This document shows, piece by piece, positions 1-12,021 of a stretch of 64,000 bases of DNA (the stretch's first letter is position 1; every line of letters starts with the position of its first letter). The translations under genes and the position numbers were made by a program. The DNA comes from Candidatus Altiarchaeota archaeon (GTDB lineage Archaea > Altiarchaeota > Altiarchaeia > IMC4 > SCGC-AAA252-I15): the NCBI GenBank assembly GCA_043800705.1, contig JAZDMS010000035.1, forward strand, positions 32,307-96,306. Direction: 5' to 3'. The notes under the pieces are model-generated. The model was given only the letters and a program-made list of their open reading frames with translations. It was not told the origin of the DNA and did no database searches.

Positions 1-2
1 AG

Positions 3-956
3 CCGCTGCGCGGCCTTTTTCGCGTTTTCCACGTTCTGCGTGGAGTAGTCCACCGGACTTCGATAGTGTGTCTGCAATATGAAAAGCCGGAACGCGTCGG
101 CGCTGTACGTCTTCAGGAACTCCCGGACTGCCAGGATGTTTCCGAGGCTCTTGCTCATCTTCTCCCCCGACGAATTGAGGAATCCGGTATGCATCCAGTA
201 CCTGACGAACGGCCTCTTCCCGGTCAACGCTTCGCTCTGTGCGATTTCGTTCTCGTGGTGGGGGAATATCAGGTCGAGGGCGCCGCCGTGGATGTCTATC
301 TGGTCGCCGAGGTGCCTCTGGCTCATGACCGTGCATTCGATGTGCCATCCCGGGCGGCCTACCCCCCAGGGGCTCTCGAATCCGAGCTCGCCCTCCCCGG
401 TCCTCTTCCAAAGCGAGAAATCCAGAGGCGTCCGCTTGTCTGGATCGGGCTCGACACGGTGCTGGCCAAGCTGCTTGGTATCCTGGTTGGATAGGAGGCC
501 GTAGCCTTCTGCCTTGGAGACGTCGAAGTAGACGCCCTTTTCAGTCACGTAGGCTATGCCCTTGCGTATGAGCGCTTCTGTTGCGGCTATTATTCCGCCG
601 ATGTTCTCCGTGACCTTCGGATATGCGTCGGCTTCGAGGAGGCCGAGGCTTCTCTGGTCTTCGTATGCCCGCCTCGCATATTCCTTCGAAAGTTCGAGCG
701 GCCTGGTATTCCGTTCCTTGGCCCGCTTGATGATCTTGTCGTCGACGTCGGTGACGTTCTGTATGTACCGGACCCTGTAGCCGCGGTACCGCAGGTACCG
801 GAGGATCGAATCGAACGCCACATAGGTCCTTGCATGGCCTATGTGCATGTCGTCGTAGACAGTGAGGCCGCAGATGTAGACCCGGACTTCCCCGTCTGTG
901 AGCGGCTTGAAGTCTTCAGTCTTCCTCGTCAATGTGTTGTATACCCTGAGTGCCAT
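3..956 (-). CDS. cysS: Cysteine--tRNA ligase, 5' part (runs off window start)
   Basis: Manual translation from ATG at 956: MALRVYNTLTRKTEDFKPLTDGEVRVYICGLTVYDDMHIGHARTYVAFD, containing the class I HIGH motif. Absent from the ORF track because it is truncated. Confidence 0.95.
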   Translation of the reverse strand, partial: MALRVYNTLTRKTEDFKPLTDGEVRVYICGLTVYDDMHIGHARTYVAFDSILRYLRYRGYRVRYIQNVTDVDDKIIKRAKERNTRPLELSKEYARRAYEDQRSLGLLEADAYPKVTENIGGIIAATEALIRKGIAYVTEKGVYFDVSKAEGYGLLSNQDTKQLGQHRVEPDPDKRTPLDFSLWKRTGEGELGFESPWGVGRPGWHIECTVMSQRHLGDQIDIHGGALDLIFPHHENEIAQSEALTGKRPFVRYWMHTGFLNSSGEKMSKSLGNILAVREFLKTYSADAFRLFILQTHYRSPVDYSTQNVENAKKAAQR

Positions 957-967
957 TTAAAAAAATT

Positions 968-1062
968 AGCGAGGGAAGGGATTCGCACCCTTGGTGGTAC
1001 GGTTTGCCGTGGCGTTTTTGGCCTTTGCAGACCGTTCTGTTGGGCTACTCCAGCACCCTCGC
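968..1062 (-). tRNA. tRNA-Cys(GCA) with 20-nt intron at 37/38 (intron 1005-1024)
   Basis: Acceptor GCGAGGG/CCCTCGC, U73 discriminator, anticodon arm ACGGT-CT GCA A[intron]A-ACCGT, T arm AAGGG-TGCGAAT-CCCTT, relaxed bulge-helix-bulge. Lies between cysE and cysS. Confidence 0.88.
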
Positions 1063-1128
1063 ATATGTATCAAATAACGTGTTGTGTTTTAAATGCCGGA
1101 GGTAAAAATCACGAAGCGATTTTATTGG

Positions 1129-1146
1129 ACTCCAGCACCCTCGCAT
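1129..1146 (-). repeat. 18-bp direct repeat of the tRNA-Cys 5' end
   Basis: actccagcaccctcgcat occurs at 1047-1064 and 1129-1146. Confidence 0.9.
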
Positions 1147-1147
1147 G

Positions 1148-1240
1148 CAGTTTTCTGTTTTCGGTTTTCCGTTTTCCGATGTCTTTATTAGACATTCATT
1201 ATTTTTTAATGCCCGAAACCGGAGACTGGAAACTGAAAAC
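1148..1240. repeat. Inverted pair of degenerate heptanucleotide tandem repeats
   Basis: cagtttt-ctgtttt-cggtttt-ccgtttt ... ccgaaac-cggagac-tggaaac-tgaaaac. Confidence 0.7.
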
Positions 1241-1241
1241 A

Positions 1242-1844
1242 TCATATGTTCCACTCCGGCGGTTTTTCCCCGGCCTCTTTGGGGTCTTTGTATCTTACGT
1301 AGGCCCCTTCGACGATGCGCAGCTGTCCTTTTGAGGTGACTACTGTGGAGTCTTCGGGGATGTCGTCGATTATGACCGTGTGCGCCCCGATTCTGCTGTT
1401 TTTCTTCACTATTACGGGGCCGAGTATGGCTGCTCCTACGCCGATGGTGACGTTGTCTTCGATGGTGGGGTGTCTTTTGTTGCCTTTTTTGTCCCTCCAC
1501 CAGCCGTGTCCTCCCAGTGTGACGCCGTGGTAGAGCATGACGTTGTCTCCTATCTCCGTCGTTTCCCCGATGACTACCCCGGTGGCGTGGTCGATGAAGA
1601 ACCGTTTCCCTATCTTCGCTGCGGGGTGGATCTCCGCGCCCGTGAGGAAGCGGCCGAGGTAGGATATCGCCCTTGGTATGAACGGGAGGCCTATGCTGTG
1701 CAGGGCGTGTGATATCCGGTAGAGGATTATGGCCTGTACGCCGGGGTACAATACCACTTCCAGGAAGTTTATCCCCTTCTTGAGCGCAGGGTCCTTTTCG
1801 TATGCCACCTGGAAGACGTCGAACATCCTATTTCCTCTCCTCAT
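1242..1844 (-). CDS. cysE: Serine O-acetyltransferase
   Basis: [34 protein letters not shown] hexapeptide-repeat signature. Confidence 0.95.
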
Positions 1845-2751
1845 ACAGCGGTGTCGAAAGGTATCTTTCGCCGGTGTCGGGGACGATGACCAATACGCGT
1901 TTTCCTTTTCCGAGCCGTTTAGCGACCGCCAGTGCCGCCCATACGTTCGCTCCGGAGGATATGCCTGCGAGGATTCCCTCCTCCTTCGCCAGCCGCTCCG
2001 ATGTCTTGTACGCGTCCTCGTTCTTCACCTGTATCACTTCGTCGACCAGCTCCTTCCGGTATATGTCCGGGACGAATCCGGCCCCAATGCCCTGTATCTT
2101 GTGGGGGCCTGGTTGTCCTCCCGAGAGGACGGGGGAGTCTGCGGGCTCGACTGCGATGAATCTTGCGTTGATGAATTTCTTCTTGAAGAAGGTCGCTATT
2201 CCGGTTATCGTCCCTCCTGTTCCGACTCCGGCGACGAATGCGTCGAATGAGCCGACTTCCGCCATTATCTCCTGCGCCGTTGTCTCGATGTGGGCTTTGA
2301 TGTTGGCCTTGTTCTTGAACTGCTGGGGGATGAAGATGTGCGGCCCTTCCTTGGCGATCTCCTCGGCCTTGGCTATCGCGCCTTTCATCCCCTTTGCACC
2401 CTCAGTCAGGATGAGCTCGGCTCCGAATGCCTTCAGTATCTTCCGTCTCTCCAAGCTCATCGTCTCCGGCATCGTCAGCTTAAGCCGGTATCCTTTGACT
2501 GCCGCGACCATGGCAAGCCCTATTCCCGTGTTGCCAGAGGTGGGCTCGACTATGATGCTTTCCTTCTTCAGGACGCCCGCCTTCTCGGCTTCCTCGATCA
2601 TGTACAATGCTATCCGGTCCTTCACCGAGGAGCCGGGGTTGAAGTATTCCAGCTTGGCTACCACTTCCGCGTCGTTTGGGCCGGGCAGCCTGTTGAGTCT
2701 CACGTGGGGTGTTCCGCCTATCGTCTCCAGTATGTTGTTTTTGATCGTCAT
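1828..2751 (-). CDS. cysK: Cysteine synthase A
   Basis: [17 protein letters not shown] lysine, [32 protein letters not shown] precedes the ATG at 2751. Confidence 0.96.
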
Positions 2752-2832
2752 TTGATTCACCTCTTTGTTATGCGTGTGGATATAAAAATCAAAGTTCGTA
2801 TTGTGTCCGGGTTTTTGTTTTGTGTCAGGCGT

Positions 2833-2901
2833 TTATAGCCTACACTGGCAGAAACAACAGCCGCATGAGCGGGCCGTGAATGCAGTTATTCCCAGATCCA
2901 T
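2833..2901 (-). CDS. Putative 22-aa poly-Cys leader peptide (MDLGITAFTARSCGCCFCQCRL)
   Basis: ATG at 2901 downstream of a TATA-like TTTATAT. Five Cys codons within 8 consecutive codons near the end, directly upstream of cysK. Confidence 0.65.
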   Translation of the reverse strand: MDLGITAFTARSCGCCFCQCRL

Positions 2902-2905
2902 TTTG

Positions 2906-2919
2906 TTAACGATTGTTAA
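2906..2919. promoter_or_regulatory. Palindromic operator TTAACGATTGTTAA (cys operon)
   Basis: Lies between the TATA box (~2934-2941) and the leader ATG. Near-identical copies at 11635-11648 and 11709-11722. Confidence 0.7.
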
Positions 2920-2965
2920 TATTATGGTGGTCCCATATAAATACTCACCCAGAGTTAATCTTAAA

Positions 2966-4105
2966 GTGGACTTCGACTGCATCCTCATTAGATACGGGGA
3001 AATAGGCCTGAAAGGCGGGAATCGGGGATTTTTCGAAAGGAAGCTCCAATCCAACATCGTTTGGGCGCTTAAGCGGGAGGGCGCCGTCTACGAAGTCGTG
3101 AAGAGGGTCCAGGGAAGGTTTCTCGTCGTATCAAAGGACGCCAAGGCTCTAGAGGCGGTAAGGAACGTCTTCGGGATAGTCTCATACAGTCCGGCCAATA
3201 TGGTAGGATGTGGGGTTGAGGAGTTGTGTGAGGCAGCCGTGAAGATAGTGGTCGCCTCGAAGCCCGATTCGTTCAGGGTAACGACGCAGAGACTGGACAA
3301 GAGGATGGATACGACCTCACAGAAGATCAACGAGGCCGTCGGGGCCGGGATCGTCGCGAGGACCGGTGCCAAAGTCAGCCTAAAGTGCGCCAAATTGGAT
3401 ATCGGATTGGATGTCACCGGCGACTGCGCATACATCTTCACTGAAACGTTCGCAGGGCTCGGAGGCCTTCCAGTCGGCGTCTCGGCAAGGGTGCTGTGCC
3501 TCCTTTCCGGGGGTATCGACAGCCCGGTCGCCGCATGGCTGATGATGAAGAGGGGGTGCCAGGTTACGCTGGTCCATTTCATGCACGAGCAGGGGTGCAG
3601 GCTGCCTACGAAGATAGAGTGCCTTTATCGGTCCCTTTGCAGGTTTGGCCCCGGCCTCAGGCTGATAGTCGTCCCTGCCGCGGAGCTTGAGCGGGAGATC
3701 ATCATGAAGGCGCCTTCGAAGGACAGGATAGTCATACTAAGGAATATGTTCCTCAAGGCTGCGGTGAAGCTACTGCGCTCCGAGAGGGCCCACGCCATCG
3801 TCACCGGAGACAACGTGGGACAGGTGGCGTCGCAGACGATAGAGAACATGGAGGCTTATCAGGCAGGCATCGACGCCCTCGTCCTGAGGCCGCTGGCATG
3901 CTATGACAAGCAGGAGATAATTGATCTGGCCAGGAGGGTCGGGACCTTCGAGGAGTCGACGTCCGCTTACGTCGACTGCTGCAGCTTCCTCGTCCCGAAG
4001 CATCCGCAGACGAAGGCCACCGCGGAGGATGTGGATTCGTCGGTCAGGTCCATGGACGAGGGCATATTGGACCTGATTCTCTCGAAGATGATTTTCATCG
4101 ATTAG
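2966..4105 (+). CDS. thiI: tRNA 4-thiouridine synthase (THUMP + PP-loop, no rhodanese domain)
   Basis: IRYGEIGLKG, GLGGLPVG, LLSGGIDSPVA, GQVASQT, DCC. GTG start at 2966 is inferred. Confidence 0.93.
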   Translation: MDFDCILIRYGEIGLKGGNRGFFERKLQSNIVWALKREGAVYEVVKRVQGRFLVVSKDAKALEAVRNVFGIVSYSPANMVGCGVEELCEAAVKIVVASKPDSFRVTTQRLDKRMDTTSQKINEAVGAGIVARTGAKVSLKCAKLDIGLDVTGDCAYIFTETFAGLGGLPVGVSARVLCLLSGGIDSPVAAWLMMKRGCQVTLVHFMHEQGCRLPTKIECLYRSLCRFGPGLRLIVVPAAELEREIIMKAPSKDRIVILRNMFLKAAVKLLRSERAHAIVTGDNVGQVASQTIENMEAYQAGIDALVLRPLACYDKQEIIDLARRVGTFEESTSAYVDCCSFLVPKHPQTKATAEDVDSSVRSMDEGILDLILSKMIFID

Positions 4106-5343
4106 TCCGTGAGCCTTTTTTCGCCTTCCAGGAGCCTGATGCCGGTGGCGTCCTGGGCGACTTCGAGCATTCCACGGTATCTTCCGTCACTGCCCCGTAA
4201 TGCGAAGAAGCGGAGGCATACGAATTTCCCCCGAAGCTGGAGCCAGTACTCGTCCGCGTCTTTCTGCCCGGACTTGAACTCCTCAATGAGCCTGTTGAGC
4301 GCCTTGCCGGCCTTGGCCGGATACATGCTCTGGATCCTTGAGCCGATAGAGTCAGGGTTCCTTGCCGTGATCCTTTGTCTGGTCCCCTGGTTGTAGTAGA
4401 CCACTATGTCGTTCTCGTCGACGAATGTCACGTCCAAGGGGAGGCTCTTGAGCAGGAGATTGACCTGTTCGTGCGTCAGGTTGCCGACATCCATATCGAG
4501 GCCTCCTGTGACTTGGACCCTGTCCGATGGCTTCGGCATGAATCCGTCCAGGGGGGACCCGTCTGATTGGGACACATCTGCGGGGCGGATGCTGTCCCAT
4601 TCATCAGCTGACATCAGGCTCAAAGCGCCGGGCAATAGGCTGTATTCCTCCTTCTTGATCTGGTCGCGCATTGTATGCATGAGGCGCCTAAGGGTCGTGA
4701 TCGATGCGGGAGCAGACTCGTTCACCTGCTTCTTGGCGAGCCGCAGAAGGGTTCTTGCGTCCTCCTCCCGGGCCCTCAGGCCTTTCATAGGCTCGACGTA
4801 GCCCTTCGATTCCAGGATCGGGAAAAGCCGGGCTTCCAGGTTGGCATAATGCTCGACGTTTTCGGATAGCCGCTCGATATGCTTTGCAAGGACGTGCTTG
4901 ACCGCGGAGAACGTCTTATTGTCCCATGTCCCGACAGCTCCGACGAGGCCGTCTATTTCCGACATGACCTTCTGCGCCTGTGCGTTCTCCGAAAGGTATG
5001 TGTCGATTAGGTGGCCTTGCGGGGCTTGAACTTTGACGCCCGCCTTCTCAGCGGCCTGGAAGACGTCCAGCGGCTTTGGGCCCTCTGCATGGGGGGCAAT
5101 ATTCCCAGCGCCTTTGCCCCCTTCGTTCCTTTGTATCTCGCCATTAAGTGCCCGGATGAGGTTTGCGACGTCGACGCCGCCCATACCCGCAAGCTCCTGG
5201 AGGGTGGCGATGTTCCCCATGGTCTTCCTCACGAGAGGATTGCGCAGACGGTCGTATTTTGGCGAGACGTTCAGGAGGAAATCAAGGAGGTAGGGATATT
5301 TCAGGAACAAGGCCCCCATCTTAGTCTCAGGTGCAAGGTCCAC
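4102..5343 (-). CDS. DUF1858/DUF438 hemerythrin-like + PAS-domain protein
   Basis: N-terminal LRNPLVRKTMG, HY..LE..LFP helical bundle, C-terminal LPLDVTFVDEND...YRGMLEVAQD PAS. Start is uncertain. Confidence 0.75.
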   Translation of the reverse strand: MDLAPETKMGALFLKYPYLLDFLLNVSPKYDRLRNPLVRKTMGNIATLQELAGMGGVDVANLIRALNGEIQRNEGGKGAGNIAPHAEGPKPLDVFQAAEKAGVKVQAPQGHLIDTYLSENAQAQKVMSEIDGLVGAVGTWDNKTFSAVKHVLAKHIERLSENVEHYANLEARLFPILESKGYVEPMKGLRAREEDARTLLRLAKKQVNESAPASITTLRRLMHTMRDQIKKEEYSLLPGALSLMSADEWDSIRPADVSQSDGSPLDGFMPKPSDRVQVTGGLDMDVGNLTHEQVNLLLKSLPLDVTFVDENDIVVYYNQGTRQRITARNPDSIGSRIQSMYPAKAGKALNRLIEEFKSGQKDADEYWLQLRGKFVCLRFFALRGSDGRYRGMLEVAQDATGIRLLEGEKRLTD

Positions 5344-11634: not shown

Positions 11635-11648
11635 GTAACAATCGTTAA
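11635..11648. promoter_or_regulatory. Operator GTAACAATCGTTAA upstream of metY
   Basis: 13 bp identical to the reverse complement of the cys operator. Abuts the minus-strand TATA box at 11651-11662. Confidence 0.7.
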
Positions 11649-11708: not shown

Positions 11709-11722
11709 TTAACTATTGTTAA
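11709..11722. promoter_or_regulatory. Operator TTAACTATTGTTAA upstream of HTH regulator
   Basis: Same palindrome, ending 8 bp before the regulator's GTG start. Confidence 0.65.
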
Positions 11723-11730
11723 GTCTATAG

Positions 11731-12021
11731 GTGAAACTTCCATGTGAACAGGCATTGTGGTACGTCCTTCCGCAGATACGCGCGGACATAGCAAGGGAAC
11801 TCATCGAGAGGGGGATGAACCAAAAGCAGGCTGCGAAGAAGCTGGGCGTCACTCCGTCTGCCGTCTCCCAGTACCTGAACAAGAAAAGGGCAGGCAAGCT
11901 TAAGCTGCCGGCAGACTACTCCAGCCTGATCAAGGATGCAGTAGAGGACATCATCAAGAACGAAGACGACGAGGTGCTGTCCGTAACGATCTGCAAATGC
12001 TGCGCCAAATCCAGAGGCTGA
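11731..12021 (+). CDS. Small archaeal HTH transcriptional regulator (COG2522-like)
   Basis: PCE...LPQIRADIAREL, QKQAAKKLGVTPSAVSQYL HTH, C-terminal CKCC. Confidence 0.85.
   Translation: MKLPCEQALWYVLPQIRADIARELIERGMNQKQAAKKLGVTPSAVSQYLNKKRAGKLKLPADYSSLIKDAVEDIIKNEDDEVLSVTICKCCAKSRG

Follow-up and report, generated by a model that had tools for sequence, protein, structure and literature searches.

Can a ribosome reading cysteine codons control a cysteine operon in an archaeon? The question is raised by a 64,000-nt stretch of a Candidatus Altiarchaeota genome (contig JAZDMS010000035.1, positions 32,307 to 96,306; from here on, the window), in which a small open reading frame (sORF) of 22 codons, rich in cysteine towards its end, precedes cysK, cysE, a tRNA-Cys gene, and cysS. 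All parts of this leader and operon lie on the minus strand, and coordinates are given as window positions. The original prediction had taken the sORF for a near-leaderless cysteine attenuator. Its core idea, that an ORF of Cys codons acts in cis on cysK, is supported by the conservation of the ORF at 16 of 18 comparable loci, by a hairpin whose arms covary, and by a second operon that carries a leader of the same kind. The element is real, conserved, specific, and linked to cysteine-synthesis genes. Judged from sequence, some cis-regulatory function as a leader is very probable; the reading we favor, with a probability of about 0.62, is a sensor of Cys-tRNA-Cys supply that is read by the ribosome, with read-through of transcription as its proposed output.

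A cysteine-codon ORF ahead of the cysteine genes

The sORF, MDLGITAFTARSCGCCFCQCRL (2833..2901), starts with an ATG at 2901, closes with TAA (2835-2833), and holds five Cys codons in its last ten, all of them within the eight codons TGC GGC TGT TGT TTC TGC CAG TGT (2842..2865). Its length, its Cys-rich end, and its place ahead of cysK-cysE-tRNA-Cys-cysS are as had been described; the label "near-leaderless", which formed part of the same claim, is plausible on the promoter geometry. The ATG is without a Shine–Dalgarno (SD) sequence, and a TATA-like box, TTTATAT (2935..2941), stands 33 nt ahead of it. Before the SD-less genes of this genome, the starts of TATA-like hexamers peak at -35..-26; that of the sORF starts at -40, which suggests a leader of ~10 nt. 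In the relatives, a TTTTATA-type box likewise precedes the sORF ATG by 30-33 nt.

Conservation was assessed in 61 genomes of the phylum. CysK-type genes occur in 17 of them, and 18 loci (given handles beginning with L, and their genomes with G) have enough upstream DNA to be compared. The prediction had called for Cys-rich sORFs upstream of cysK in related archaea, and these are present: at 16 of the 18 loci an ATG ORF of 18-25 codons sits at the equivalent place and its Cys codons are kept, the 16 leader-bearing loci representing 15 genomes and three families of one order. The two loci lacking the ORF are L014 (G010) and L016 (G029). Twelve of the leaders have three to six Cys codons, three have two, and one (L007) has a single one. 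Together they carry 55 in-frame Cys codons in 359 codons, confined without exception to the last 12 codons, with the N-terminal part free of them; Cys makes up 55 of the 192 codons (29%) in the 3' ends of the leaders, compared with 1.6% in the long ORFs of this genome.

The enrichment belongs to one frame. TGY triplets number 55 in the sORF frame and 7 and 5 in the other two, which carry 15 and 22 stops across the 16 leaders, the sORF frame being open. The N-terminal sequence and the ORF length drift freely (at least seven lengths are seen), and the frame is never closed; two copies in G011 differ by seven residues in their N-terminal part and by 0 nt in their last 27 nt. Upstream of the hairpin described in the next section, Cys codons switch between TGT and TGC and shift in position, yet stay numerous. 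An open frame, Cys codons that are numerous and movable, and a peptide that otherwise drifts together argue for a leader peptide and not a functional small protein. As to codon choice, TGT is favored in the leaders (3/5 here, 40/55 overall); the long ORFs of the genome contain 7,400 TGC and 1,670 TGT codons.

The genes that follow are conserved as well. After cysK, cysE is found in 14 related loci; seven of 14 have an intron-less tRNA-Cys gene placed, as in the window, between cysE and cysS; and cysS follows in the eight loci that extend far enough. The operon supplies everything required for Cys-tRNA-Cys, that is, cysteine, tRNA, and synthetase. A second leader, L020 (MMDLYPSIPSRPRAFRCSECPCSL; three Cys codons, the hairpin, and the palindrome discussed later), is located at G024:C19, ~9 kb from the cysK locus of that genome, before a PALP+CBS gene and a Cys/Met pyridoxal phosphate-type (PLP) gene. 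This PALP+CBS (cystathionine beta-synthase-like) operon represents another pathway to cysteine. At the cysK locus of G024 the leader, L007, has decayed so far that a single Cys codon is left, and extra TATA-like boxes lie close to the gene.

How often would such an ORF be met elsewhere? In this genome, 111 of 12,876 ATG ORFs of 15-30 codons have at least three Cys in their last 12 residues. The negative control consisted of 77 unrelated cysK loci (distant homologues of 53-66% identity, mostly bacterial together with other archaea): an upstream sORF with at least two Cys in its last 10 residues is found in four of the 77, and the core of the palindrome that precedes our leaders is absent at those control sORFs. 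Upstream ORFs of L044 and L053 (Omnitrophota metagenome-assembled genomes, MAGs) and of L022 (a Thermoplasmata MAG) read MCQNCQREF, ...SRCRYYYLCRAC, and ...VGCEICKQS, respectively, with Cys pairs towards their ends; it is possible that these short ORFs are independent Cys leaders. A search of metagenomes with a pattern of palindrome plus ATG gave at least 124 matches and at least 97 short ORFs, none of the latter with a Cys-rich C-terminus, and no relatives were present among the matches listed. A degenerate Cys-Gln-Cys-Arg pattern with two mismatches matched at the level of its reversed control; exact or with one mismatch, its extra matches were one second copy at a G011 contig end and chance matches within genes. 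A crude scan of the genome for other amino-acid-rich leader ORFs gave nothing convincing, and since it missed the cysK leader too, it carries no weight.

The hairpin across the stop codon

The sORF ends in a hairpin, H1 (2822..2845), made of a 5' arm GUGUAGGC (2845-2838), the loop UAUAAAC, and a 3' arm GCCUGACAC (2830-2822). In the window its energy is -9.7 kcal/mol (z = -2.89; 2/200 shuffles fold as well), and the stop codon lies within the 7-nt loop. That a hairpin spans the stop codon had been predicted from this window, and it holds both here and in all 16 leaders. The stop codon is in the loop in 13 of them and at the junction of loop and 3' arm in three; the 5' arm consists of the last sense codons, UGU, usually followed by AGG or CGG, and then one more codon. 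Measured against shuffled 3' halves, the z-scores are negative in 16/16 cases (-0.75 to -5.87).

The two arms of each leader belong together. Mean H1 energy is -9.53 kcal/mol with cognate arms and -5.89 kcal/mol with swapped ones, and 0 of 20,000 permutations did as well (p about 5e-5). Under anchored folding, four positions show exchanges of both partners of a pair (A-U/C-G/U-A, G-C/U-A/C-G/A-U, C-G/G-C, and G-C/C-G).

A covariance model built from eight leaders recovered 12 and missed the most divergent ones (L004, L008, L012, L017, and L020), and the threshold of E <= 0.001 removed three spurious matches at E 0.25-0.48. Across the 61 genomes the model has 12 matches: 11 immediately precede cysK, and the remaining one falls at a contig end. 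In the resulting alignment of 12 leaders, which was fitted to the model and is hence biased towards it, 83.2% of cells pair, compared with 30-43% with slid partners; compensatory changes are found at two pairs, in seven cells (3/500 shuffles), and the covariation score is 0.239 versus 0.157 (1/500 shuffles). RNAalifold returned 0 pairs on a MAFFT alignment of whole leaders, because the 3' arms are out of register in that alignment.

At its very end (R, then L, V, A, or G), the peptide follows the pairing and not amino-acid identity, which argues for selection on the RNA, and not on the peptide, in that part of the leader.

How the leader might act on cysK

Between the sORF and cysK lies a spacer of 81 nt that is poor in G (10.8%, vs 27.6% for the genome), and the window spacer folded alone is unstructured (z = 0.17). 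It contains the U-rich tract UUUGAUUUUUAUAU (2780..2793, with U5 at 2788-2784), a candidate for either an oligo-U terminator (attenuator) or a second TATA box, and then the cysK SD sequence GAGGUGA (2757..2763). A tract of U5 to U9 without a hairpin of its own is present in 12 of the 16 spacers, 12-44 nt 3' of H1, and nearly all loci have a GGUGA-type SD 5-8 nt 5' of the cysK ATG. Within the G-poor run there is a GGAC island (2805..2808, ~27 nt 3' of the stop codon); 11 of the 16 leaders have a GGAY island 12-18 nt 3' of H1, and pairing of GGAC with the body of the sORF is not significant (p = 0.115). The sORF frame of the window is stop-free for 27 codons past the TAA into the cysK ATG (2751-2832). 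Stop-codon read-through into cysK was considered and rejected, the two being in frame in 7/16 loci, which is the level expected by chance.

What, then, does the hairpin switch? In the original prediction, UUUGAUUU (2793-2786) was to pair either with the ribosome-binding site (RBS) of cysK or with an upstream A-tract. This switch is not supported, being predicted in this window only: the pairing of UUUGAUUU with GAAUCAAA at the cysK start appears in the minimum free energy structure of the window with 0.29 pairs/nt, vs <=0.11 in the 11 other loci that have U5 or longer. Pairing of the Cys tract with the spacer is no better for cognate than for swapped sequences (p = 0.99), and alternative helices of the H1 arms with the spacer, as in the trp type, gave no cognate-specific partner (p = 0.51-0.84). 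The leaders contain neither an intrinsic terminator (a GC-rich hairpin with an immediate U-run) nor mutually exclusive terminator and antiterminator hairpins. The only cognate-specific pairing is that of the 5' arm with the 3' arm (p = 0.0002), and a modelled stalled ribosome alters H1 only, raising the unpaired fraction of its 3' arm from 0.21 to 0.78. In these models, the design that remains would be a switch of one helix, H1, which either folds or is kept open by the ribosome.

Archaeal polymerases terminate at oligo-U, and aCPSF1/FttA is an archaeal termination factor. This genome encodes an aCPSF1 orthologue (TIGR03675, 887 bits, above cut-off). Because U5-U9 tracts are found in 12/16 spacers and oligo-U terminates archaeal transcription, regulated read-through at oligo-U is the output that we propose. 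Transcription would start ~10 nt 5' of the sORF AUG, with an operator over the start region as a first, protein-based layer of control. Five of the last ten leader codons are Cys codons, and the progress of the ribosome through them would report the supply of Cys-tRNA-Cys. With a good supply, it would reach the stop codon in the H1 loop and leave; H1 would refold, and the polymerase, trailed by the naked G-poor spacer, would stop at the oligo-U ~35 nt past H1, possibly with the help of aCPSF1/FttA, so that little cysK mRNA is made. With Cys-tRNA-Cys in short supply, the ribosome would stall on the Cys codons that abut or enter the 5' arm, H1 would be blocked, and more polymerases would reach cysK, cysE, tRNA-Cys, and cysS. 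That shortage is the state that opens the operon is the direction we infer for the switch.

Several points weigh against this proposal. We know of no way in which the folding of H1 could raise termination 30-45 nt downstream. The U-tract is missing in four of the 16 leaders (L006, L008, L010, and L011), and termination is therefore not the universal output. In the window the tract is TATA-like (TTTTTATAT) and starts at -37, near the TATA position of the leaderless genes of this genome; in 10 of 12 loci it lies 27-39 nt from the cysK ATG, resembling the distance between the real TATA box and the sORF ATG; and the SD-less genes of the genome carry T-runs at -35..-26. As the sORF has no SD, its translation depends on leaderless-type initiation, with a leader length of ~10 nt that is itself deduced. 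Some members are weak, L007 having one Cys codon and three leaders having two, and the loci come from related MAGs, so their counts are not independent events. Sequestration of the SD, as in the mycobacterial type, is not supported across 16 loci: the unpaired fraction of the RBS is 0.454 in the free RNA and 0.452 under a mask representing the stalled ribosome (Wilcoxon p = 0.43). An antiterminator or antisequestrator, sought by comparing the 3' arm, the 5' arm, and the Cys tract with the spacer, was not found (p = 0.51-0.99). Should the sensor reading be right, termination would still be less likely than not as the regulated step.

The same Cys-tRNA sensor might have a different output, be it translational control of the mycobacterial type, protection of the mRNA against 5'-3' decay by the stalled ribosome or by H1, or cleavage at H1. 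Such an output would suit the four leaders that keep sORF and H1 without a U-tract, and mycobacterial Cys leaders act on translation, according to the accessible text of Canestrari et al. (bioRxiv 10.1101/834739). A second fold of the window, moreover, allows CGCCU of the freed 3' arm to bind AGGUG of the SD; this pairing, however, has a z-score of 0.17 and the wrong regulatory sign. Nor does a stalled ribosome change the predicted accessibility of the RBS in the 16 loci, and neither the Cys tract nor either arm pairs with spacer or RBS in a cognate-specific manner. On balance, a sensor with one of these other outputs is unlikely.

Alternatively, the sORF could be a separate small unit ending at the oligo-U, with cysK transcribed from its own promoter; the RNA or peptide would then act in trans or have no role for cysK. 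Here and in about half of the loci the T-tract does resemble a TATA box, its spacing of 27-39 nt from the cysK ATG in 10/12 loci is like the geometry of the leader promoter, and T-runs and TATA-like hexamers alike peak at -35..-26 before the SD-less genes of the genome. In three leaders (L008, L010, and L011), however, the spacer has no TATA-like or T-rich element, and cysK must there be read from the leader promoter only; in L002, L003, and L020 the tracts are plain U-runs without TATA character. A TATA-like hexamer at -35..-26 is rare among the SD-bearing genes of this genome, and cysK has kept its SD, which transcripts starting at -5..-10 would lack. The operator stands before the sORF here, yet in L016, where the sORF is missing, it immediately precedes cysK, and the peptide is unconserved outside the Cys tract, its last residues tracking RNA pairing. 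The operator of L016, the TATA-less spacers, and the kept SD of cysK all support co-transcription; the sORF is probably translated, and transcribed together with cysK, and a separate unit seems quite unlikely.

Starved ribosomes might also slip to +1 on the Cys codons, escort the polymerase past the terminator, and arrive at the cysK start. From the Cys tract through H1, spacer, and oligo-U to the cysK RBS, the +1 frame is stop-free in 10 of the 16 leaders, and in the window it ends at a UGA within the SD GGUGA, 8 nt 5' of the cysK AUG. Frames 0 and -1 are open in four and seven of the 16, respectively, the -1 frame meeting the UAG of the invariant UGUAGG. Under a mononucleotide shuffle, 4.4 leaders are open on average, and 10 or more are reached with a probability of 0.004, a value to be read in the light of three frames tried and of related loci. 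No slippery motif for a +1 frameshift was seen in the leaders. If true, this would be an attenuator with a programmed frameshift as its output, which we regard as highly improbable.

Very unlikely, too, is a conserved element that is purely an RNA or DNA signal (a protein-bound hairpin or a processing site) with an incidental frame. In its favor, conservation of the best-kept letters (CAGUGUAGG) extends to third codon positions, the last UGU is in no case UGC, and the residues that follow vary according to the pairing partner. Against it, in 16/16 leaders an open frame runs from an ATG just past the operator to a stop in the loop of the hairpin, at no fewer than seven ORF lengths; TGY is frame-specific (55 vs 7 and 5); and the upstream Cys codons vary between TGT and TGC and in position while staying numerous.

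Known leaders, a candidate operator, and neighboring genes

The closest published systems are bacterial. In mycobacteria, polycysteine leaderless sORFs (Ms5788A type, the "Cys ribulon") act on translation, their Cys tract base-pairing with the SD of the gene that follows, as described in the accessible text of bioRxiv 10.1101/834739. As far as that text goes, the archaeal leaders share with them an SD-less first ORF, Cys codons clustered at its 3' end, a position before cysteine-metabolism genes, several loci per genome (here in G024), and ribosome pausing on Cys codons as the proposed sensor. They differ from what is described there in that no duplex of Cys tract and SD is predicted or conserved, and in having the covarying stop-codon hairpin, the G-poor run, and, in most spacers, the oligo-U tract. 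The host is also different, being an archaeon (TBP, tRNA intron), and the lack of sequence homology between the archaeal leaders and the mycobacterial sORFs argues for independent invention.

For the cys and cbs leaders of actinobacteria, Seliverstov et al. (2005; PMC1262725) propose factor-dependent termination, and the accessible part of their paper reports no terminator or antiterminator hairpins. Our leaders resemble those described there in their runs of Cys codons near the stop, before cys operons and a cbs gene (PMC1262725); no stop-codon hairpin is described in that part of the paper, and those bacteria have Rho, whereas the only candidate factor here is aCPSF1/FttA. Two features of the factor-dependent type are found in our case, namely unstructured G-poor RNA after the leader stop and an orthologue of a termination factor in the genome. 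With both of these closest systems, the mycobacterial and the actinobacterial, the logic is common and the structure is not.

In the trpL and hisL attenuators, the 5' strand of a hairpin (1:2 in trpL) contains the regulatory codons and its loop region the leader stop codon, and a U-tract follows downstream. H1 is like trpL 1:2 in that the Cys codons are in its 5' strand, the stop codon is in the loop, and a U-tract comes further downstream; it is unlike these attenuators in that counterparts of the 2:3 antiterminator and of the 3:4 terminator hairpin are missing, the U-tract has no preceding hairpin, and the rules are those of an archaeal polymerase and archaeal termination. In the Rho-dependent tnaC system of Escherichia coli, free tryptophan arrests the ribosome at the leader stop codon. 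Here, too, the ribosome would be arrested near the end of the leader, with an unstructured G-poor stretch after the stop and termination at a distance, but the proposed cause of arrest is hungry codons and not a free amino acid sensed at the stop.

Attenuation by leader peptides is textbook knowledge for bacteria and needs ribosomes on the nascent RNA; archaea likewise couple transcription and translation. A literature search that was thin on subscription journals and did not cover supplements returned bacterial cases only and no amino-acid-sensing leader ORF for any archaeon. The locus therefore offers a compact and specific archaeal candidate, combining a mini-gene of Cys codons, one covarying stop-codon hairpin, and an operon for cysteine, tRNA-Cys, and synthetase. 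If it works as a sensor, the position of a ribosome would be coupled to the archaeal polymerase, to a termination factor, or to RNA decay in some other way than through bacterial terminator/antiterminator logic, and the coupling question would be directly testable with a cassette of 170 nt.

A second layer of control may lie just upstream. The palindrome TTAACAATCGTTAA (2906..2919), a candidate operator, is situated between the TATA box and the sORF ATG, and its core AACAATNGTT occurs within ~20 nt 5' of the sORF ATG in 13 of the 16 leaders. In L016, which has no sORF, two copies stand directly before cysK, and in L014, also without an sORF, half-site-like repeats lie between the TATA box and cysK. 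Searched as TTAACAATNGTTAA with at most one mismatch, the palindrome has eight sites in this genome and its reversed control has 0; sites include window positions 2906-2919, 11635-11648, and 11709-11722 and G000 C5:30439, C18:11913, and C18:16636. They are found at the cysK leader and thiI; at a cysteine-desulfurase-like gene just upstream of the window; as a pair between a metY/metX-like operon and a divergent helix-turn-helix (HTH_3) gene; and ahead of a membrane-protein gene and of a gene with a 14-codon, Cys-less ORF in front. The palindrome marks a small sulfur regulon.

The HTH_3 gene (11731..12021, plus strand), flanked by two copies of the palindrome, encodes a regulator of 96 aa with the N-terminus MKLPCE and the C-terminus CKCC. 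Its orthologue is the divergent neighbor of the cysK-type locus in 11 related loci, 10 of them with the leader and the eleventh being L016, which lacks it. This 96-aa protein is a candidate binder of the operator at 2906-2919. Control of the sulfur amino-acid genes would then have two layers, a palindromic operator with a small HTH protein and, in addition, the leader.

Gene identities were taken from Pfam and NCBIfam profiles. cysK (O-acetylserine sulfhydrylase; 1828..2751) matches PF00291 and scores 444 bits with TIGR01139 against a cut-off of 351. The cysE-type serine O-acetyltransferase (1242..1844) has hexapeptide repeats and scores 188 bits with NF041874 (cut-off 150); under TIGR01172 it reaches 192.8 bits, below the cut-off of 210.65. 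The 5' part of cysS (cysteinyl-tRNA synthetase; 3..956) matches PF01406 (E = 4.7e-118), and the gene runs off the window. The genome also encodes TBP, a protein that was confined to archaea in the controls of the search.

Divergent from the leader is thiI, with a GTG start at 2969. The AT-rich element at 2935-2942 (ATTTATAT / ATATAAAT) is placed as a TATA box for both divergent units, ATATAAAT on the plus strand being 26 nt 5' of the thiI GTG, which is a leaderless geometry; thiI and the leader may share this box.

A cmscan of window positions 1-5000 against Rfam, with E up to 1, returned no leader or tRNA family; a weak match to sR44 was seen elsewhere, at 3212-3263. The tRNA-Cys(GCA) gene (968..1062) was missed by Rfam and by ARAGORN, with or without the intron option of the latter, because it carries a 20-nt intron in the anticodon loop. 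Once the intron is removed in silico, ARAGORN reports a tRNA-Cys(GCA) of 75 nt with a regular fold and discriminator U. A 16-nt copy of its 5' end (GCGAGGGTGCTGGAGT) is present on the minus strand at 1129-1144, ~82 nt upstream of the real gene.

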